From assembly GCA_029012525.1 (NCBI GenBank), contig JAQXMG010000046.1, positions 1 through 7,703 of the forward strand: a stretch of DNA of 7,703 nt, written 5' to 3'. This document shows positions 1 through 7,703 of this stretch, in pieces. The notes beneath the pieces were generated by a model that was not told where the DNA came from, made no database searches, and was given only the letters and a program-made list of their open reading frames with translations. The stretch comes from a bacterium. GTDB lineage: Bacteria; Bacillota_I; Bacilli_A; RF39; UBA660. Numbering within the stretch: position 1 is the stretch's first letter; every line of letters begins with the position of its first letter. Position numbers and translations under genes: made by a program.

Positions 1-267
1 GAAGATATAATTGATTTTCATTATAAATTTGAACGTATTCATCCTTTTGGAGATGGTAATGGTCGTGTTGGTAGAATTATTATGTTTAAAGAGTGCTTAA
101 AAAATAATATTATGCCTTTTATAGTATTAGATGATGATAAACTATATTATATGAGAGGCTTAAAAGAATATGAAAATGATAAAATGTATTTAATTGATAC
201 TATTAAGCATGAACAAGATTTATATAAACAAATTTGTGAGAAACTATTAGTTTTTGAAATAGAATAA
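1..267 (+). CDS. Fic/DOC (Fido) family protein, C-terminal fragment; 5' end lies outside the window
   Basis: Frame 1 is open from base 1 to the TAA at 265-267. The translation EDIIDFHYKFERIHPFGDGNGRVGRIIMFKE... carries the canonical Fic active-site motif HxFx(D/E)GNGRxxR as HPFGDGNGRVGR (nt 40-75). Confidence 0.85.
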   Translation, partial: EDIIDFHYKFERIHPFGDGNGRVGRIIMFKECLKNNIMPFIVLDDDKLYYMRGLKEYENDKMYLIDTIKHEQDLYKQICEKLLVFEIE

Positions 268-333
268 AAGTAAAAACGTGTAAAATATGTTAATATTTTC
301 TATAAGAGGTGATGTTATATAAAATGTATATTA

Positions 334-875
334 ATGAATAAAAATACCTTAGTATTAGAGGTGGAATATGACTTGGCTAATGGTGTATTTTCTGAAATTT
401 ACAAAGTTTATAATATTGATTATGCTCCATATATATTAAAAAGTTTTTATATAGAAAATGATGTAAATGATATATCTTTTAGAACAAATCTTTCAGAATG
501 GTTTAAAGGAAGAAGTATTCCAAGATAAATATAACTGCTCCAAGCGAATTATTAGATAAAGCAAATGCTTTATCACTTTCAGACCAATATTGGATAAAAC
601 CATATAATCTAGATGTAAAATATGATGATATTAACTTTTTTGATGACGATTTTGAGTATAGTGAATTTTTAGAGGCATCATTATCTAAAAATAGTAAAGT
701 TATAACGAATGAAAAATCATTAAAAAAAACTTCAAATAATACAACTGATGGTATGTTAAAGAAAGCATGGATTATTGAAAATGGAACAAGATATCTTCTT
801 AAAGGAGGATATAAAAATGAATTATTACAACCATTTAATGAAGTTTTAGCAAGTGAAATATGTCGTCGTTTATGA
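334..875 (+). pseudogene. HipA-like Ser/Thr kinase toxin gene, degraded: frameshift near 523-530, and the kinase core is missing after 875
   Basis: The frame-1 ORF 334-528 ends ...LSEWFKGRSIPR*. The reading continues in frame 3 from ~528 as NITAPSELLDKANALSLSDQYWIKPYNLDVKYDDINFFDD...TTDGMLKKAWIIENGTRYLLKGGYKNELLQPFNEVLASEICRRL* (TGA at 873-875). The blocks W..GRSIP, LSLxDQYWIK, TxDGxLxKxWxxxxGxxYLxKG and NExxAS match my memory of Firmicute HipA-like N-terminal and central regions. The catalytic C-terminal half is absent. Frame-1 residues 876-~1030 might be a remnant C-terminal tail. Confidence 0.55.
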
Positions 876-1030
876 TTTAAAAAGAATTGATATTAATAAG
901 TTAGATGGAATTGTAGAATGGTTTGATGAATTACTTCATAAATATCAACATTTAACTAAATTTTCTGATACGAGAATTAATAAATTATGTATTCTATTAA
1001 ATAGGCAAATAAACAAATTAAAAAAATTAA

Positions 1031-1059
1031 TTGTATTTTTTTATAAAATTTTATATAAT
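1031..1059 (+). promoter_or_regulatory. Candidate sigma-70-type promoter of the DGR target gene
   Basis: TTGTAT (1031-1036), a 17-nt spacer, then a perfect TATAAT (1054-1059), about 34 nt upstream of the ATG at 1093. Such matches arise by chance in AT-rich DNA. Confidence 0.35.
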
Positions 1060-1092
1060 TTATTTATAATAAAGAGAGGAGTTAAAGAAAAA

Positions 1093-2955
1093 ATGAAAAA
1101 TTTAAAAGATAATATAAGAAATAAATATATAGTAGCATCACTATTTGTAATAGGACTTATATTAATGGTAATTGGAGTATCATATGCCATGTATACATTT
1201 ACAGGTACAGGTACAACAGAAAACGTAATAACAACAGGACAAATAACCGTAGCATTTGCAGAACAAAATAATATCTTAATACAAAATAGATATCCAGAAA
1301 CAGATGCAGTAGGACTAGCAAGTACAGATCCTAATAGTCAAATGACATTTACAGTATCAAGTAATATTTCAGGAGATGCAACAGTAAATTATGCAATAGG
1401 TTTAACTGATATAGTTGAAGGAGCAACATTAAAACAAGACCATATAAAAATTTACTTAACAAAAAATGGAAGTGTTGCAAATGACTTTACAGAAAATAAA
1501 GGAAAGACAATTAAAAGTATATCAAGATATAGTATAACAAACTATCTAGATAGCCATGTAATAGCACAAGGGTCTGTAACTGGTACTCAAACTGATACAT
1601 ATACATTAAAAGCATGGATAGATGAAAACTATGATTTACCAACAACAGATACATCAAGTGGTAACGTACATAGTAATACAACAACAACTGAAACATTTAG
1701 TTTTAAATTAAAAGCAATAGGTTCAGATGATGTATTAGTATTTGTAAAACCAGAAGTATTAGTATGTGATGAAATGCCAGAAGAAACAACAAGTGCAAAT
1801 GTACCAAGTTTAGCAAAAAATATGATACCAGTATGCTATAATAGTACAAAAAATGTATGGTTAAAAGCAGATAGTACAAATACAGATTCAGATTATAGAT
1901 GGTATTCATATAGTGGAAAGTCTTGGGCTAATGCAGTAACAGTAAGTGAAACAAATAGAGAAACATATTTAGATGCAGAGGTTGGAACAGTAATTCCAAT
2001 GGAAGTAATAAACACAATGTTAGTATGGATACCAAGATTTAGTGCAACAGGTGATACAGCAAATTATAATGGAGGAACAATAGATAGTCCTGGAGCATTT
2101 AATATAACATTTGTAAATAAAGATACAGCGGCACATGATGCTTTTGCATTTGGAACAGATTCATTATCAGGATTTTGGATAGGAAAATTTGAAAATTCAA
2201 GTAATGTATCATGTGAACCAGCAAGTAGTTCTGACGTAGGAGCAGGATGCAATCTAACATCAATAAGACCAAAAGTATTACCAAATGCAACAATTTGGAG
2301 AGGAGCAAATGTATCAACATTCTTTGGTGATATTCAAAAAATGGCTGATAGTGGAAACCAATATGGATTTGATAAAACAATTGATACAACCCTAGATACC
2401 CATATGTTAAAAAATAATGAATGGGGTGCAGTAGCATACCTAACACAAAGTATCTATGGTAGATGTAGTTCATTAACAAGTTGCAGTGAAGTAGGAATAA
2501 ATAATAATTCAAGTTATATAACAGGATATGGAGCACCTGCTGGAAGTGCATCTACTGTAACAAATGGAGCATATAATACAGACTTAGGAAAAGATGCATC
2601 GACAACAGGAAATATTTATGGTGTATATGATATGAGTGGTGGAGCATATGAATACGTAATGGGTAATTACAATAATACAGCAGATGGTTCTCAATTTACA
2701 ACATTACCAAATACAAAATATTATAATGTATATACAACAGAAAGTGCATATACAACAGCAGGATTACAACATGCGTTAACGGAGACGAAAAAATGGTATG
2801 GCGATTCCGCGTACTTCGTTAATTCTAACCGTCCGTGGGTCCTTCGTGGAGGCAACGATAGTAATCCTGGCCTTGCAGGTGTTTTCTACTTCCACGCCTC
2901 CGGTGGCCGCAGCGATCCGTATTGTGGTTCTCGTCTTTCAGTCACAATTAACTAA
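1093..2955 (+). CDS. DGR target (variable) protein: N-terminal signal-anchor, beta-rich middle region, C-terminal FGE-sulfatase/C-type-lectin-like domain ending in the VR
   Basis: AGAGGAG (1075-1081) lies 11 nt before the ATG at 1093. The N-terminus MKNLKDNIRNKYIVASLFVIGLILMVIGVSYAMYTF has a basic stretch followed by a hydrophobic helix. The C-terminal half carries FGE/CLec-type blocks GFWIGKFE, NEWGAVAYL, GVYDMSGGAYEYVMGNY and WVLRGG...GSRLSV. The ORF-track start at 853 is only a stop-free read-through of the upstream remnant. Confidence 0.85.
   Translation: MKNLKDNIRNKYIVASLFVIGLILMVIGVSYAMYTFTGTGTTENVITTGQITVAFAEQNNILIQNRYPETDAVGLASTDPNSQMTFTVSSNISGDATVNYAIGLTDIVEGATLKQDHIKIYLTKNGSVANDFTENKGKTIKSISRYSITNYLDSHVIAQGSVTGTQTDTYTLKAWIDENYDLPTTDTSSGNVHSNTTTTETFSFKLKAIGSDDVLVFVKPEVLVCDEMPEETTSANVPSLAKNMIPVCYNSTKNVWLKADSTNTDSDYRWYSYSGKSWANAVTVSETNRETYLDAEVGTVIPMEVINTMLVWIPRFSATGDTANYNGGTIDSPGAFNITFVNKDTAAHDAFAFGTDSLSGFWIGKFENSSNVSCEPASSSDVGAGCNLTSIRPKVLPNATIWRGANVSTFFGDIQKMADSGNQYGFDKTIDTTLDTHMLKNNEWGAVAYLTQSIYGRCSSLTSCSEVGINNNSSYITGYGAPAGSASTVTNGAYNTDLGKDASTTGNIYGVYDMSGGAYEYVMGNYNNTADGSQFTTLPNTKYYNVYTTESAYTTAGLQHALTETKKWYGDSAYFVNSNRPWVLRGGNDSNPGLAGVFYFHASGGRSDPYCGSRLSVTIN
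2800..2944 (+). repeat. DGR variable region (VR), the last ~48 codons of the target gene
   Basis: It aligns without gaps to 3777-3921 (offset +977). Across 2801-2944 there are 25 mismatches, 22 of them where the TR base is A (9 A>C, 7 A>G, 6 A>T). By hand count the VR is 54% GC, against ~41% for the TR and roughly 25% for the window. An invariant 20-bp 3' block (2925-2944) could serve as an IMH-like element. Confidence 0.9.
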
Positions 2956-2983
2956 TTGTTAAATTTATTTAACAATTAGTTAA
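2948..2983. promoter_or_regulatory. Perfect inverted repeat (hairpin/cruciform) 3 nt downstream of the VR; candidate DGR target-recognition element
   Basis: TTAACTAATTGTTAAAT (2948-2964) is the exact reverse complement of ATTTAACAATTAGTTAA (2967-2983), with a 2-nt centre. It overlaps the TAA stop (2953-2955). No equivalent repeat follows the TR. Confidence 0.7.
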
Positions 2984-3056
2984 AGTCCTAAAAAACCCAC
3001 TAATACGAAGAAAGGAAATAAATTATTTTAAAGTAATATAAGAAATAGGAAGAAAC

Positions 3057-3094
3057 TTTTCCATATTTCAAACTGGATTTTGAAATATGGAAAA
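3057..3094. repeat. 16-bp perfect inverted repeat (stem-loop) in the target-gene 3' region
   Basis: TTTTCCATATTTCAAA (3057-3072) pairs with TTTGAAATATGGAAAA (3079-3094), with the loop CTGGAT. Confidence 0.6.
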
Positions 3095-3129
3095 AGAAGA
3101 TTAAAGAAAAAATAAAAGAGGTAGGTAGT

Positions 3130-3171
3130 CCCAGCAAAATTAAACTGATTTTAATTTTGCTGGGGTTTTTT
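3130..3171 (+). terminator. Rho-independent terminator of the target gene
   Basis: The stem is CCCAGCAAAATTAAA (3130-3144) paired with TTTAATTTTGCTGGG (3150-3164), with the loop CTGAT. It is followed by G and TTTTTT (3166-3171). Confidence 0.8.
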
Positions 3172-3264
3172 GTATATTTGTAAAATATAAAGTCATAAAT
3201 ATTTTAAAGTCAAAAAGTCATATTTATTATGCAATTTTTGTTATTAAATTTTTAGTTAAACTCG

Positions 3265-3301
3265 TTGACGTGTGTGTGTGTGTGTGTATGTGTATTATAC
3301 T
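3265..3301 (+). promoter_or_regulatory. Candidate promoter for the MutS-I-like/TR/avd/RT transcription unit; its spacer is the (GT)9 tract
   Basis: The -35-like TTGACG is at 3265-3270. The -10-like hexamers are TATTAT (3293-3298, spacer 22 nt) and TATACT (3296-3301, spacer 25 nt). The site lies between the terminator (3171) and the RBS/ATG at 3310/3326. Confidence 0.35.
3270..3287. repeat. (GT)9 dinucleotide microsatellite, followed by the degenerate ATGTGT
   Basis: GTGTGTGTGTGTGTGTGT can be read directly at 3270-3287. It is compositionally anomalous in this AT-rich window. Confidence 0.95.
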
Positions 3302-3325
3302 ATTTACATAGGAAGTGAATAGTAT

Positions 3326-3739
3326 ATGATAAAGTTAAGTGATTATGTTAAAGAAGTAATTGATAAAAATATTGATAAAGTCGTAATGGTAAAGTATGGT
3401 AATTTTTATAGATGCTCTTATAATGATGCATTAATTATGTCATATTTATTTAATTATAAAATTACAAATAGAAATACTGTTGGTTTTCCAATTAATACAC
3501 TAAATAATGTTTTAGATAAATTAAAAGATAATAAGATAAGCTGTGTAGTAGTATATGAAATAAATAATGTAATAAGTTATGTTATTATAGATAATAAATA
3601 TATGGAAGTATTAGATAAAGCAATAAAATATGATAATGTGAAAGAGGCAGTAAAAGTAATTAGTGAATTATCTTATGAAATATTAAATAGAGATATTAGA
3701 AAATTACATAAAATAATGTTATTTTTAAGAAATTTATAA
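3326..3739 (+). CDS. Small DGR accessory protein resembling MutS N-terminal mismatch-binding domain I (MutS-like, 137 aa)
   Basis: The RBS AGGAAGTGA (3310-3318) lies before the ATG at 3326. KVVMVKYGNFYRCSYNDALIMSYLFNYKITNRNTVGFPINTLNNVLDKLKDNKISCVVV parallels E. coli MutS [33 protein letters not shown]...[25 protein letters not shown]. Conserved blocks are G-F-Y, Y-DA, (L/I)T-R, G(I/F)P and the hydrophobic strand. The comparison was made from memory. Confidence 0.6.
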   Translation: MIKLSDYVKEVIDKNIDKVVMVKYGNFYRCSYNDALIMSYLFNYKITNRNTVGFPINTLNNVLDKLKDNKISCVVVYEINNVISYVIIDNKYMEVLDKAIKYDNVKEAVKVISELSYEILNRDIRKLHKIMLFLRNL

Positions 3740-3776
3740 TGGTATCAACTTTAGTTGGTATAGGGATAAAGCTACA

Positions 3777-3921
3777 AGTGATAACGCGAACTTCGTTAAT
3801 TCTAACAATCCGTGGTTCCTTCGTGGAGGCAACTATAGTAATACTGGCAATGCAGGTGTTTTCAACTTCAACAACAACAATGGCAACAGCAATACGAATT
3901 ATGGTTCTCGTCTTTCAGTCA
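3777..3921 (+). ncRNA. DGR template repeat (TR), the non-coding RNA template for mutagenic cDNA
   Basis: It is homologous to VR 2800-2944. Read in the VR-equivalent frame (pos mod 3 = 0) it gives DNANFVNSNNPWFLRGGNYSNTGNAGVFNFNNNNGNSNTNYGSRLSVST* with 16 AAY (Asn) codons. It contains 43 adenines, of which 22 differ in the VR. Confidence 0.9.
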
Positions 3922-4097
3922 GTACTTAGTAAAATTGTTATACAAGACTGATGTAAATAGTTTAAGGACTATTAAAGGTTATTATAAGTACAAGTTTTAT
4001 TCCTTATCTTACAAAGATAAAATAAATTACTATGATAGTTTTAGGTGAGTAATGTTTTTTATGAAAATTCTAAAACTATTAAGAAGGAGAATTAATT

Positions 4098-4439
4098 ATG
4101 TTAAATAATTTAATAATATATAAGGTACATCTTGATTTAATGGAATATGCATATAAATTACTTGTTAAGTATCCAAAATATGAAAAAAACGGAATAGTAA
4201 GTGAAATAAAAGAAAATCTATATGATATATTAAAAAATATTATTTATTATAATAATAAAAAGAATAAAATTTCATTAAATAATATATTAATTGATTTAAA
4301 TATGCTTTTAGTATTAATTAGAATATCATATAAAATGAAATATATAACTAATAAAAACTATATGGCATTTGCAAGAAAAATAAATAACATAAGTAAACTA
4401 TGTCATGGATTAATAAATAGTGTTAACAATCAAAAATAG
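4098..4439 (+). CDS. avd: Avd (accessory variability determinant), four-helix-bundle protein
   Basis: The RBS AAGGAG (4084-4089) lies before the ATG at 4098. The protein is 113 aa and basic. The pattern ...YKLLVKYPKYEKNGIVSEIKENLYDIL...IDLNMLLVLIRISYKMKYITNKNYMAFARKINNISKLCHGLI matches the Avd / 23S-rRNA-IVS four-helix-bundle family. It sits immediately upstream of the RT and overlaps it. Confidence 0.8.
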   Translation: MLNNLIIYKVHLDLMEYAYKLLVKYPKYEKNGIVSEIKENLYDILKNIIYYNNKKNKISLNNILIDLNMLLVLIRISYKMKYITNKNYMAFARKINNISKLCHGLINSVNNQK

Positions 4440-5442
4440 TTTTTATAGTAATATTACATTTGATAAGTTTTTAAAAGCATATTATAAATCAATTAAGGGT
4501 AAAGGTTTAAAATGTGAAATACTTGAATTTTATTATAATTTAGAAAATAATTTAATTACATTAGTGGATGAAATAAGTTCTTTTAAATATAAAAGTAGTC
4601 CATATAGAGAATTTATTATATATGAACCAAAGATGCGAATTATAAGAAGTTTACCATTTAGAGATAGAGTAGTAGAAACATGGTATGTAGAAAATATAAT
4701 AAAACCATATTTTGTACCAAGATTTATTTATGATAATTATGCATGTTTAGAAAATAAAGGGACACATAAAGCAGTAAAAAGACTTCAACATTTTATGAGA
4801 AGTATGAGGGAGAAATATGGAAAATATTATGTTGTTAAGTTTGATATAAGACATTTTTTTGATAGTATAGATAAAGATATATTATTTAGTATATTAAAAA
4901 GATATATAACTGATAAATATGTATTATTATTTACATATAATATAATTTATAGTAATAATAAATGCGGGTTACCTATTGGAAATTACTCAAGTCAGTACTT
5001 CGCAAATATTTATATGAATGAATTAGATCATTATATAAAGGATGTTCTTCATAAAGCGTGCTACGCACGTTTTATGGATGATTTTGTCGTTTTGGTTGAA
5101 AATAAAGTAGAAGCGAGAGAATTTTTTGATTTAGTAGAAATATTTGTAAATAATAAACTTAATTTAGGACTTAATAAAAAGAGTTGTTATTATCCAAGTA
5201 GGTTAGGAATTGACTTTTGTGGATATATTATTCATGAAGATTATATACTTGTTAGAAAAAGATGTATTAAAAAGATAAAAGGAAAAATAAAAGTATGGAA
5301 TAAATTATATGATAAAGGTGTTCTTGATAATAAAAAGTTTATTTTATCTTTTAATTCATTTTTAGGACATATAAGTCATGCGAATACTTATAATTTAAAA
5401 TGTAAAGTTATTAGTGAAATTGATTATTTAAATATAAAATAA
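4420..5442 (+). CDS. DGR-type reverse transcriptase
   Basis: The GTG at 4420 is the first possible start after the in-frame TAA at 4414-4416, and it overlaps avd by 20 nt. RT motifs are present: IIYEPKMRIIRSLPFRDRVV (motifs 1-2), VKFDIRHFFDSI (motif 3), LPIGNYSSQYFANIYMNELDH (the DGR-diagnostic IGxxxSQ motif 4) and ARFMDDFVVL (the YxDD catalytic box). The 340-aa length is typical of a DGR RT. No intron maturase or endonuclease domains are present. Confidence 0.93.
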   Translation: MLTIKNSFYSNITFDKFLKAYYKSIKGKGLKCEILEFYYNLENNLITLVDEISSFKYKSSPYREFIIYEPKMRIIRSLPFRDRVVETWYVENIIKPYFVPRFIYDNYACLENKGTHKAVKRLQHFMRSMREKYGKYYVVKFDIRHFFDSIDKDILFSILKRYITDKYVLLFTYNIIYSNNKCGLPIGNYSSQYFANIYMNELDHYIKDVLHKACYARFMDDFVVLVENKVEAREFFDLVEIFVNNKLNLGLNKKSCYYPSRLGIDFCGYIIHEDYILVRKRCIKKIKGKIKVWNKLYDKGVLDNKKFILSFNSFLGHISHANTYNLKCKVISEIDYLNIK

Positions 5443-5520
5443 TAATGTACAAAAAATGTAATAAAAAATGTAATATAAAAAAGAATTAAATTTAAATAAC
5501 ATAAATTTAAGTAAAATAAG

Positions 5521-5563
5521 TTTTTTTCGAAAAAATTTCGATTTTTTTTCGATTTTTTTTCGA
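5521..5563. repeat. Four TCGA cores spaced exactly 11 bp apart and separated by T/A tracts; the first lies in the palindrome TTTTTTCGAAAAAA
   Basis: TCGA occurs at 5527-5530, 5538-5541, 5549-5552 and 5560-5563. The intervening runs are mostly T7-8. Confidence 0.7.
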
Positions 5564-5567
5564 CTTG

Positions 5568-5677
5568 CAATTTGCTTTGTCAAGTGTTATATTTGGTATA
5601 GTAGTGCTAATTATTGTAAAATGGCAATATTGTTATAGTATACTTAAGAAATTTGGTGATTTTTGCTAAATTTTTTT
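5568..5677 (+). repeat. Direct repeat copy A (~110 bp), upstream of the Fic gene; contains two TGnTATAGT extended -10-like motifs and a hairpin followed by a T-run
   Basis: It aligns to 6601-6709 with about 8 differences in ~110 positions. TGGTATAGT is at 5594-5602 and TGTTATAGT at 5631-5639. The stem is AAATTTGG (5649-5656) paired with CTAAATTT (5666-5673), followed by a T-run to 5679. Confidence 0.8.
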
Positions 5678-5747
5678 TTGGTAAAATTAAACAATATAAG
5701 ATGTTTTATGATATAATTCATATATATAAAGTTTAGGAGGTATCAAT

Positions 5748-6560
5748 ATGGATGATATTACTTATGATAAAGTTGTTGATGAAAAAAATTCTAAAATAAA
5801 ACAGTTATATTGGAATATAGCATTTGGATTACAAGAAGTTGATGGTTTAAAACCTTCAAAATATATGGTGCAGTTATCAAAAGAACATATTGAAGGTAAA
5901 AAAACATATAAACAAGTACAAGATGAAATTACATCATATTATGTCAAAAATTCAAATAATTATGATGATGACGAAGAAGAAGCAGATGAAGTATCAACTG
6001 CTATTTATGAAATATTAAGTGATGGTGCATTTCGTTTTGATTATTTAACTTATAAAAATTATCATAAAAGATTATTTAAATATTTAAGCAATGAAAAGTA
6101 TGATGCTGGAAATTTTAGGACTTACAATTTTACTAAAGATGAACCAGTATTAAATGGGGATAGTGTAGATTATCAATCTTATGATTTAATTGAAGAAACT
6201 TTAAAGTATGATTTTTCTGAAGAAAAAGAAGTTGATTATATTAATATGAATAAAGAGCAAATAGTTGATCGAATATCAGAATTTACATCAAGGATTTGGC
6301 AAATTCATCCATTTAGGGAAGGAAATACTAGAACAACTGCAGTATTTATTCAAAAATATTTGTTAAGTATGGGATTTAAAGTTAATAATGATTTATTTAA
6401 AGATAATTCACTATATTTTAGAAATGCTTTAGTTAGAGCAAATTATACAAATTATGTTATAGGTGTAAGGGCTGACAAAATTTATTTAAATAAGTTTTTT
6501 GAAAATTTGTTATTAAATAAAAAGAATAAATTGGATAATGATGATTTAAGGATTAATTAA
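5748..6560 (+). CDS. Fic-family protein with a VbhA-like N-terminal domain and a non-canonical active-site motif
   Basis: The RBS AGGAGG (5735-5740) lies before the ATG at 5748. The Fic core is IHPFREGNTRTTAVF, against the consensus HxFx(D/E)GNGRxxR. The N-terminal NIAFGLQEVDGLKPSKYMVQLSKEHIEGKKTYKQVQDEI parallels VbhA NALASQRLEGLEPDPQVVAQMERVVVGELETSDVIKDL. The C-terminal block is YFRNALVRANY. Confidence 0.8.
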   Translation: MDDITYDKVVDEKNSKIKQLYWNIAFGLQEVDGLKPSKYMVQLSKEHIEGKKTYKQVQDEITSYYVKNSNNYDDDEEEADEVSTAIYEILSDGAFRFDYLTYKNYHKRLFKYLSNEKYDAGNFRTYNFTKDEPVLNGDSVDYQSYDLIEETLKYDFSEEKEVDYINMNKEQIVDRISEFTSRIWQIHPFREGNTRTTAVFIQKYLLSMGFKVNNDLFKDNSLYFRNALVRANYTNYVIGVRADKIYLNKFFENLLLNKKNKLDNDDLRIN

Positions 6561-6600
6561 TATAATAAATTTATTATTTTTTTCCTATTTTTTCACCTTT

Positions 6601-6709
6601 CAATTTGTTTTGTCAAGTGTTATATTTGGCATAGTAGTGCTAATTATTGTAAAACGCTAATATTGTTATAGTATATTTAAGAAATTTGGTATTTTTGCCA
6701 AATTTTTTT
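6601..6709 (+). repeat. Direct repeat copy B, downstream of the Fic gene; followed by an RBS and only a 4-codon ORF
   Basis: It is ~93% identical to 5568-5677. The hairpin is AAATTTGG (6682-6689) paired with CCAAATTT (6698-6705), followed by a T-run to 6709. AGGAGG (6730-6735) then precedes ATG TAT AAG ATA TAA (6743-6757). Confidence 0.8.
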
Positions 6710-6802
6710 GTTTGTTTAAAATAAAGGTTAGGAGGTTAAAAAATGTATAAGATATAAAATTATTGTTTTTGGCAGCATTTTTGTAATACAATTATCTATT
6801 TT

Positions 6803-6867
6803 TGTTATAACAGATGTTTTAACAAATGTTATAACGATTGTTATATTTTTAACCATTTGTTATAAAG
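6803..6867. repeat. Iteron-like array: four degenerate 12-bp tandem units built on the palindromic core TGTTATAACA, plus a fifth copy
   Basis: The units are TGTTATAACAGA (6803), TGTTTTAACAAA (6815), TGTTATAACGAT (6827) and TGTTATATTTTT (6839). After a 7-bp gap comes TGTTATAAAG (6858-6867). Confidence 0.75.
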
Positions 6868-6966
6868 AAAATTTAGAAAAAATAGTAAAATTGTTAGACC
6901 AAAAGTATGACATATATAAATGTGTATGACATTTGAATTTTTCTAAAACCCTTTATTTTAAGGCTA

Positions 6967-6985
6967 AACTACCCACTGGGTAGTT
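6967..6985. repeat. GC-rich 9-bp-arm palindrome AACTACCCA-C-TGGGTAGTT
   Basis: This can be read directly. The arm 6967-6975 is the reverse complement of 6977-6985. The palindrome is flanked by the inverted 9-mers GTGTATGAC (6922-6930) and GACATACAC (7016-7024, matching 8 of 9). Confidence 0.75.
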
Positions 6986-7058
6986 GTTTGTCAGACGCAT
7001 TTATCCTGCTAAAAAGACATACACGTAAAGTTATACAAATTAGGAAAGGAGAAAGTAA

Positions 7059-7232
7059 ATGAATAAAGAAGATTTAGTATTTTATCAAGTTAGAATTAAT
7101 AAAAAATTATTAAAAATTTTTAAAGAAATAATTAAAAAAACTAAAATGTCACAACAAGATTTTTTTGATAGTGCTATAAAAGAATTTATTGTTAAAAATA
7201 TTGATGTTGTTGCAAAAATTGAAGATAAATAA
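7059..7232 (+). CDS. Small ribbon-helix-helix (CopG/Arc-like) DNA-binding protein, 57 aa; not in the supplied ORF track
   Basis: The RBS AGGAAAGGAG (7042-7051) lies 7 nt before the ATG at 7059, and the stop is TAA at 7230-7232. The translation is MNKEDLVFYQVRINKKLLKIFKEIIKKTKMSQQDFFDSAIKEFIVKNIDVVAKIEDK. It fits the RHH pattern of an N-terminal beta-strand (VFYQVRI), helix A, then helix B (SQQDFFDSAIKEFI). Confidence 0.6.
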   Translation: MNKEDLVFYQVRINKKLLKIFKEIIKKTKMSQQDFFDSAIKEFIVKNIDVVAKIEDK

Positions 7233-7308
7233 TAAAAGGAAGTGAAGTTTATAAGTTTTATTTTTAATAAAATAAGTAATTTATCCATAAATTTAAGTGA
7301 GGTTAATT

Positions 7309-7485
7309 ATGGATAAGTATAAAATAAATTTTATTTTTAATAATGAAAAAGATATAAATGATATCTTAATAAATGTTTTAAATAAAGAATTAAAAAAATA
7401 TGTTCAGATGATTTGTAAAAATTATAAAAGAGAGGTAACATCATCATGTACTTATTTATATCTAGAAGGAGGTAAGAATTGTTAG
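7309..7485 (+). CDS. Small hypothetical protein (58 aa) translationally coupled to the recombinase gene
   Basis: GTGAGG (7297-7302) lies 6 nt before the ATG at 7309, which I prefer over the track's GTG at 7297. The TAG stop at 7483-7485 overlaps the recombinase start. I recognise no family. Confidence 0.4.
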   Translation: MDKYKINFIFNNEKDINDILINVLNKELKKYVQMICKNYKREVTSSCTYLYLEGGKNC

Positions 7486-7703
7486 AGAGTATAAATAAGA
7501 TATATAATGTTGGTATTTATATAAGATTATCTCGTGAAGATGATGATAAAGTAATGATGAGCGAGAGTATTACAAATCAAAAGAGTTTATTACTTCAATA
7601 TGTAAAAGAAAATAATTTAAGAGTTTATGATATTTATATTGATGATGGATATAGCGGAACTAATTTTGATAGACCTGATTTCAATAGGTTATTAAATGAT
7701 ATT
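7479..7703 (+). CDS. Large serine recombinase (resolvase/invertase catalytic domain), N-terminal fragment running off the window
   Basis: The strong RBS AAGGAGG (7466-7472) lies 6 nt before the TTG at 7479. The translation LLESINKIYNVGIYIRLSREDDDKVMMSESITNQKSLLLQYVKENNLRVYDIYIDDGYSGTNFDRPDFNRLLNDI carries the serine-recombinase signature Y-x-R-x-S (catalytic Ser in IRLSRED), the Q block, and D-G-x-SG-x-x-x-x-RP. The frame is open to base 7703. Confidence 0.85.
   Translation, partial: MLESINKIYNVGIYIRLSREDDDKVMMSESITNQKSLLLQYVKENNLRVYDIYIDDGYSGTNFDRPDFNRLLNDI

Follow-up and report, generated by a model that had tools for sequence, protein, structure and literature searches.

Promoters of the sigma-70/sigma-A type work best with a spacer of 17 +/- 1 bp between the -35 and -10 hexamers, with a steep loss of activity beyond 19-20 bp. 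In Haemophilus influenzae, as van Ham and colleagues are said to have reported in 1993, a (TA)n repeat lies between the -35 and -10 elements of the hifA/hifB promoter and sets transcription to off, intermediate or full. The porA, opc and fetA genes of Neisseria meningitidis use a homopolymer promoter spacer as a volume control of transcription, and promoters of the MerR family have spacers of 19-20 bp with a dyad operator inside the spacer and a MerR gene nearby. Repeats in promoter spacers are a classic phase-variation device (PMC2628566, PMC3053259, PMC11868660). For the Vmm protein of Mycoplasma mycoides (Persson et al. 2002, via PMC2628566 and PMC3053259), dinucleotide insertions and deletions in a promoter repeat are given as the cause of frequent, reversible ON-OFF switching, and Vmm-related lipoprotein genes are said to carry poly-TA tracts of 10-16 units that differ between loci and strains. 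Here, a promoter of this general build is proposed for a diversity-generating retroelement (DGR) on contig JAQXMG010000046.1 (assembly GCA_029012525.1) of a bacterium placed in Bacilli_A, RF39, UBA660. The stretch analysed, called the window in what follows, comprises 7,703 nucleotides (positions 1 to 7,703 of the forward strand), and in it a GT microsatellite separates two promoter-like hexamers just upstream of a MutS-like (MSL) gene.

The window is a complete MSL-type DGR (architecture D, PMC5758913) with an adenine-specific pair of template repeat (TR) and variable region (VR), a reverse transcriptase (RT), Avd and a MutS-like gene. For Msl-encoding DGRs of Bacteroides, a preprint (bioRxiv 10.1101/2024.11.15.621889) describes tight regulation with low transcript levels of avd, TR and rt, and control that is at least partly transcriptional; the terms searched for in that preprint led to no repeat-containing promoter or phase variation. 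The word promoter has no occurrence in Wu et al. 2018 (PMC5758913). A search of the literature on DGRs together with phase variation, simple repeats, slipped-strand mispairing or microsatellites yielded no account of a DGR controlled by a repeat, in line with the initial annotation of this DNA, which was aware of no earlier description. The type of switch is already known; what would be new is the (GT)n example and its role as the controller of a DGR. The reading put forward here, to which a probability of roughly 60% is assigned, is that the GT tract forms the spacer of a sigma-70/sigma-A-type promoter driving the MSL-TR-avd-RT operon, and that slippage in this spacer tunes hypermutation.

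The proposed promoter and its immediate surroundings comprise the following features, in the order terminator, -35, tract, -10, ribosome-binding site (RBS) and MSL start codon:

3127-3167, forward strand: intrinsic terminator of the DGR target gene, an 18-pair stem followed by a T run (terminator scan)
3265-3270, forward strand: -35-like hexamer TTGACG (sequence)
3270-3293, forward strand: (GT)9-AT-(GT)2 microsatellite forming the spacer (sequence; period 2 and 12 copies in Tandem Repeats Finder)
3293-3298, forward strand: -10-like hexamer TATTAT, with TATACT at 3296-3301 as an alternative (sequence)
3310-3318, forward strand: predicted RBS AGGAAGTGA of the MSL gene (sequence)
3326-3739, forward strand: MSL (MutS-like) accessory gene of 137 aa (Pfam MutS_I, E 3.9e-7, above the curated cut-off)

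The uninterrupted (GT)9 occupies 3270-3287 and is followed by AT and then (GT)2 up to 3293. The distance from TTGACG is 22 nt to TATTAT and 25 nt to TATACT, and the positions and both spacers given in the initial annotation match the sequence. The whole set of -35 hexamer, tract and -10 hexamer stands directly 5' of the MSL gene, with TATTAT 27 nt upstream of the ATG, and the terminator at 3127-3167 separates the target gene from the downstream operon. Transcription would be predicted to start at about 3305-3306 (range 3304-3307), with a leader of about 20 nt. The tract was also rightly described as out of place in AT-rich DNA: the G+C content around it is 18-30%, and a GT run of 18 nt appeared in 0 of 200 dinucleotide-preserving shuffles of the window. 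An extended -10 element acting alone was considered as the promoter and rejected, as TGn is in register only in lineages with odd spacers and is absent before every hit in the window.

The assertion that TTGACG and its partner are the only promoter-like sequence in this region did not hold. Two other matches to the consensus with normal spacing exist on the forward strand, TTTAAA-16-TATTAT at 3203-3230 and TTTACA-16-TATGAT at 3303-3330. These would suit an explanation in which the promoter lies elsewhere (for example at 3203-3230) or the operon is transcribed by read-through from the target gene, with the tract being junk, a neutral microsatellite, or a (GU)n element in the 5' untranslated region of the RNA; a TTGTTA-18-TATAAT just upstream of the tract in the relative L035 points the same way. 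However, promoter-consensus matches in the window are at chance level, with 16 found and 16.3 expected, both additional sites occur at chance frequency and are not kept between lineages, and a strong terminator lies upstream of the module. Among the promoter-like pairs, only TTGACG/TATTAT is kept in diverged relatives.

The way in which such a spacer would act depends on its make-up. As the spacer is a dinucleotide microsatellite, slipped-strand mispairing would shift its length in steps of 2 bp, and given the optimum of 17 +/- 1 bp, the repeat number would be expected to determine how much Avd and RT is made and, in the window, how much TR RNA. Rates of mutagenic retrohoming would vary accordingly, and hypermutation would be governed by a dial that is set at random, inherited and reversible; we infer the dependence of this dial on repeat number, its reversibility and any adaptive value. 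In the window family the reachable spacers would be 16, 18, 20 and 22 nt and never 17 nt, and in L024, L026 and L035 they would be 17, 19, 21 and 23 nt, with TGn in register. The 22-nt allele of the window and the 20-nt allele dominant in its lineage would represent low or off states, with 18 or 16 nt coming within reach once a 20-nt spacer has lost one or two GT units, or a 22-nt spacer two or three.

Good support for a promoter comes from relatives, which are metagenome contigs retrieved through exact-protein look-ups and homology searches. In several lineages the MSL gene is preceded by TTGAYR-(TG/GT)n-TATTAT(ACT) or TATATT, followed by an RBS and an ATG. These include L024/L025, with an MSL 73% identical to that of the window, L026 (47%), L035 (37%; a metagenome-assembled genome (MAG) of Bacilli), and L028, which has a different upstream flank. 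On the -35 side of the tract TTGACG, TTGACA or TTGATA is found in all lineages, the -10 side is conserved as TATTATACT or TATATT, and the purine-rich block 5' of the MSL ATG is kept in alignments of the relatives, even though DNA upstream of the -35 hexamer cannot be aligned between lineages. A hairpin with a T run also precedes the module in L024; in L035 one like it can be made out by eye but was not called by the terminator scan. This footprint argues well for hexamers and repeat forming one functional promoter, as the initial annotation had supposed of the flanking hexamers. It also bears on the neutral explanation, under which a repeat with consensus hexamers at both edges would not persist down to 37% MSL identity. 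The same elements carry ordinary promoters of the form TTGACA-17-TATATT, -TATAAT and -TACAAT, so that their hosts appear to use normal spacing.

The gene order in L035 is target gene, TR, hairpin, promoter, MSL, avd and RT, with the TR (L035:4535-4662) upstream of the promoter. As the module precedes MSL despite this different order, it is tied to the MSL start and not to the TR. The proposal that the switch gates both TR RNA and RT expression is therefore compatible with the window, where the TR lies inside the operon, and does not extend to the L035 type, where it would gate MSL, avd and RT alone; there the TR must presumably be transcribed apart from MSL-avd-RT, perhaps through read-through from the target gene.

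The module is not a feature of all MSL-type DGRs, as those of L036-L040 (Clostridia MAGs) and L027 have no GT tract upstream of MSL. Pattern scans with exact flanks and a variable gap gave no match in metagenome_contigs or genome_contigs because the family is not in those collections. The pattern TTGAYR(TG)6...TATTATAC retrieved only unrelated microsatellite sequences from metagenome_contigs, of 32-49% G+C and probably eukaryotic, and in viral_contigs it found just the two contigs already known. The L035-type pattern had no match in viral_contigs, and phage blastn with the intergenic region, MSL and TR gave no match.

Repeat alleles were read from contig consensus sequences, one per contig. 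In the window lineage the spacer is 20 nt in 14 contigs and 22 nt in 2. The 20-nt spacer occurs as (GT)11 in L002, L005-L011, L014, L016 and L028 and as (GT)8-AT-(GT)2 in L001, L003 and L004; the 22-nt spacer is the (GT)9-AT-(GT)2 of the window and a perfect (GT)12 in L045. Two contigs, L003 (1,040 nt) and L004 (571 nt), show 0 mismatches to the window and a single 2-nt gap, equal to one GT unit. Likewise, L049 and L035 align over 809 nt with 0 mismatches and one 4-nt gap, having (GT)8 and (GT)10, respectively; L049 comes from another Hadza sample, and its MSL is 100% identical to that of L035. The comparison of GT copy number in relatives, suggested in the initial annotation, thus reveals a number that is not invariant and that forms the sole difference between otherwise identical contigs. 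Judged from the assembled sequences, the tract is the most mutable site of the compared loci.

Outside the window lineage the lengths spread further. The spacer is 21 nt in L024/L025, L026 and L035, and within the L035-type family the spacers read from DNA are 17 nt in L049 and 21 nt in L035. Two open reading frames (ORFs) of this family span the whole tract and can be translated back into it: YLTRVCVCVL in P0075 corresponds to TTGACA-C(GT)9 with a 19-nt spacer, and YLTCVCVCVCVL in P0073 to TTGACA-(TG)12T with a 25-nt spacer. The N-termini of the MSL proteins fall into the classes MCVCVCVL (n=11, spacer at least 23 nt), MCVCVL (n=11, at least 17 nt), MCVL (n=7) and ML (n=11), and several groups with identical MSL cores differ in N-terminal class. 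Across elements not seen to be dead, spacers of 17, 19, 20, 21, 22, at least 23 and 25 nt are found. The (GT)8 allele of L049 reads TTGACA-17-TATATT with TG at the extended -10 position; with 11 of 12 matches it outranks every other promoter hit on its contig, and the 21-nt (GT)10 allele of L035 was not called by the same promoter scan.

Gene callers start many L035-type MSL ORFs (L035:4917-5363; P0015-P0081) at an in-frame GTG inside the tract. Owing to these starts inside the repeat, MSL proteins in databases bear spurious N-termini of the 'MCVCV' type that incidentally record the tract. A further observation concerns short contigs that begin exactly at or inside the GT tract (L045:1-25 and L046:1-13). 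Such ends fit length heterogeneity within a sample that breaks the assembly graph, and low coverage fits them equally well.

The state of the tract also differs between DGRs that have decayed and the rest. Three dead loci keep just an 11-nt remnant of it (L043:867-890, L044 at about 1310-1340 and L050 at about 420-450). In L043 and L044 the genes after a truncated MSL are unrelated ones, and TR, avd and RT are all missing there; the RT of L050/L051 is without residues ~182-284 of the L035 RT, the YVDD motif included; in L043 the -10 hexamer is also mutated, to TATCCT. The tract is thus at most about 5.5 units long in 3 of 3 dead loci and at least 8 units in the other loci, several of which are short contigs on which the RT could not be checked. 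In this small sample, the pattern agrees with upkeep of the tract for as long as the DGR functions and with its decay thereafter. A tract that was merely neutral or acted as RNA would not be expected to collapse specifically in dead DGRs, and together with the persistence of the hexamers this makes the neutral explanation distinctly unlikely.

If the promoter reading is correct, the activity of the DGR should follow its spacer. The remaining features of the DGR and its flank are these:

853-2955, forward strand: DGR target gene, with the VR at 2803-2955 at its C-terminus (ORF list)
3174-3222, forward strand: direct repeats that recur about every 25 nt, with AAAGTCA three times, 45-90 nt upstream of the -35 hexamer (Tandem Repeats Finder)
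3780-3932, forward strand: TR, 81% identical to the VR (repeat family D2)
4098-4439, forward strand: avd accessory gene (Pfam bAvd, E 3.2e-15, above the curated cut-off)
4420-5442, forward strand: DGR RT, overlapping avd (Pfam RVT_1, E 2.9e-19, above the curated cut-off)

Mismatches between VR and TR inside the repeat fall at TR adenines, and a scan of 2700-4500 showed nothing terminator-like between MSL and avd. The true start of the target gene is probably the ATG at 1093 and not the GTG at 853 of the mechanical ORF; this ATG is preceded by agagaggag and gives a hydrophobic N-terminus and a product of 620 aa, compared with calls of 621 aa and 611 aa in relatives.

Several observations weigh against a slippage switch. 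Carriers of 20- and 22-nt spacers have at least five VR haplotypes (the window, L001, L002, L006 and the L005 group); most of the differences between them lie at TR adenines (23-30 sites), and the 7-10 sites elsewhere are found chiefly in the 5' flank. The DGR has therefore worked in lineages with a consensus promoter that counts as 'too long', and 20-22 nt is not strictly off over evolutionary time. A spacer of 16-18 nt was found in none of the 16 window-lineage contigs, of which the 14 with 20 nt come from different samples, and a spacer of 20 nt recurs in both the MSL-A and the MSL-B clade and in perfect as well as interrupted tracts, so that the persistent 20 nt could be the functional state itself. 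The 17-nt allele of L049 stands on a contig with a k-mer coverage of about 1.5, although a two-unit stutter of the polymerase chain reaction is unlikely to be behind it. The 'MCVCV' classes were rejected as exact tract lengths and serve only as lower bounds, since in L049 and L050 a longer GTG start was available that the caller did not use. Finally, assemblies are consensus sequences with one allele per locus, in which switching within a population is not visible. The interpretation in the initial annotation is partly supported, with the promoter and the hypervariable repeat well backed by comparison and a switching of expression as a prediction. Naturally occurring spacers of the predicted ON length are present in the L035-type family, at 17 nt in a range of 17-25 nt, and absent at 16-18 nt from the window lineage. 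The 22-nt spacer of the window is still predicted to be low or off, against which stand the diversified VRs of its 20- and 22-nt carriers.

Diversification in spite of long spacers could be explained by weak basal activity of the promoter, or by rare cells that are ON for a short time and do not show up in consensus assemblies. It is also compatible with about 20 nt being functional through supercoiling, Z-DNA or an activator. In its general form, this alternative treats an alternating purine-pyrimidine tract of about 20-21 bp as a special spacer of fixed length and as the working state, with slippage as tolerated noise; the tract could be a supercoiling-sensitive B-Z or bubble element, an unusually flexible spacer, or the target of an activator that realigns the hexamers as MerR does. 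A length conserved at 20-21 nt fits five of the lineages; as the main explanation it is rejected on account of the L035-type lengths, and it stays a rival in view of the window lineage. Besides the diversified VRs, it draws on the 20-nt spacer of 14 of the 16 window-lineage contigs and the 21 nt shared by L024/L025, L026 and L035. TG repeats show torque-driven B-Z and bubble transitions (PMC8053131), and alternating GT of 18-24 bp has the sequence needed for Z-DNA; the transitions of TG repeats require high torsional stress (PMC8053131). Against a fixed length stand the L035-type family, which spans 17, 19, 21, at least 23 and 25 nt, the toleration of a GT-to-AT interruption in the tract and the ordinary 17-nt promoters that the hosts carry. 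For an activator of the MerR kind, the spacer is a direct GT repeat without a dyad, and no regulator domain was found by Pfam among the window ORFs scanned. A spacer of fixed length is therefore held to be improbable, and the slippage-tuned promoter remains the preferred reading.

A different role for the tract would link it to the MSL protein, either as a cis target of MSL in autoregulation or as a site where interference of MSL with mismatch repair raises slippage, and does so only in the ON state of the operon; in both cases DGR activity would come in self-limiting bursts. Even under the gene order of L035, the tract stays with the MSL start codon and not with the TR, and the GNFYR of MSL is aligned by profile to the mismatch-binding GDFYE motif of MutS. 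In Bacteroides, according to the preprint (bioRxiv 10.1101/2024.11.15.621889), the host MutS antagonises retrohoming. On the other hand, the match of MSL to solved MutS structures is weak (E 0.026), the MSL-type DGRs without a GT tract upstream of MSL (L036-L040 and L027) do not fit, and the idea is a matter of deduction throughout, so that it is considered very doubtful. Of the same low standing is a feedback that could be added to the slippage-tuned promoter: MSL made by an ON operon might attach to slipped GT loops, or weaken mismatch repair, and in this way destabilise the promoter repeat. In such a case the DGR heteroduplex would be protected and cells would leave the ON state fast, giving self-limiting bursts of diversification in a subpopulation.

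The MSL gene shows a peculiarity of its own. Within the MSL ORF (window 3394-3721), the coding sequence differs by about 20% of nucleotides between the window with L001-L004 and L005-L016, and yet these two groups share 100% identity in Avd and almost the same intergenic sequence upstream. Divergence of MSL amid conserved neighbours looks like cassette-style recombination of this gene. Upstream of the promoter, the AAAGTCA direct repeats at 3174-3222 may be a regulator site or UP-like region; they are confined to the window-type flank and absent from the flanks of L028/L043, L024, L026 and L035. Rfam and tRNA scans of the window gave no match, and hence no known RNA element accounts for the region.

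Downstream of the RT lies a Fic gene (5748-6560), and in relatives a large serine recombinase comes next. An element of 152 nt occurs twice in this part of the window with 82% identity, at 5531-5682 upstream of the Fic gene and at 6564-6715 upstream of a small ORF at about 6744. Promoter-like hexamers occur within this element, a hairpin with a T run closes it, and Rfam has no match to it; it may be a leader or small RNA. A second, different microsatellite stands beside a related DGR in L038, a Clostridia MAG with an MSL-type DGR: (AG)12 at 3586-3609 lies inside a leader ORF of 25 codons (3554-3631) that encodes MIKRARTIDTV(RE)6RATL and a stop, has its own RBS and is located just upstream of the DGR target gene (3766-4896).

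Should the promoter reading be true, one family of DGRs in gut Bacilli would possess a simple control that needs no regulator, with a bearing on how chromosomal DGRs stay mostly silent. A small, heritable and reversible fraction of cells would hypermutate and the rest would remain stable, which would amount to one bet-hedging device stacked on another. As VR (2803-2955) and repeat (3270-3293) lie within about 500 bp, one read or amplicon is enough to show which VR haplotype goes with which repeat length in existing metagenomes. A practical point is that the spurious N-termini of MSL proteins in databases also keep a record of the tract.

Compared with the systems described at the outset, the locus resembles hifA/hifB, where a dinucleotide microsatellite also lies between the hexamers and spacing is altered by slippage in 2-bp steps. 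There, however, the repeat is TA and serves two divergent, overlapping promoters of a surface structure, whereas here it is GT, in one promoter, ahead of genes for retroelement mutagenesis; in addition, the alleles of the window lineage lie 2-5 bp above the optimum. Vmm resembles the present case in its low-G+C, Bacilli-related hosts and in having a dinucleotide repeat in the promoter region, and differs in that the repeat is TA, the products are surface lipoproteins and switching was shown by experiment, whereas the GT promoter is proposed from sequence comparison. The tracts of porA, opc and fetA are mononucleotide and change in 1-bp steps, in contrast to the even steps of the window lineage, by which 16 or 18 nt would be reachable and 17 nt never. 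Consensus-like hexamers around an over-long spacer are common to MerR-family promoters and this one, but the spacer here is a non-palindromic repeat of 17-25 nt, with no MerR-type gene in the window. The element itself follows the MSL-type DGRs of Wu et al. 2018 (PMC5758913), with a target gene ending in a C-terminal VR, MSL, TR, avd and RT, and adenine-specific mutagenesis.

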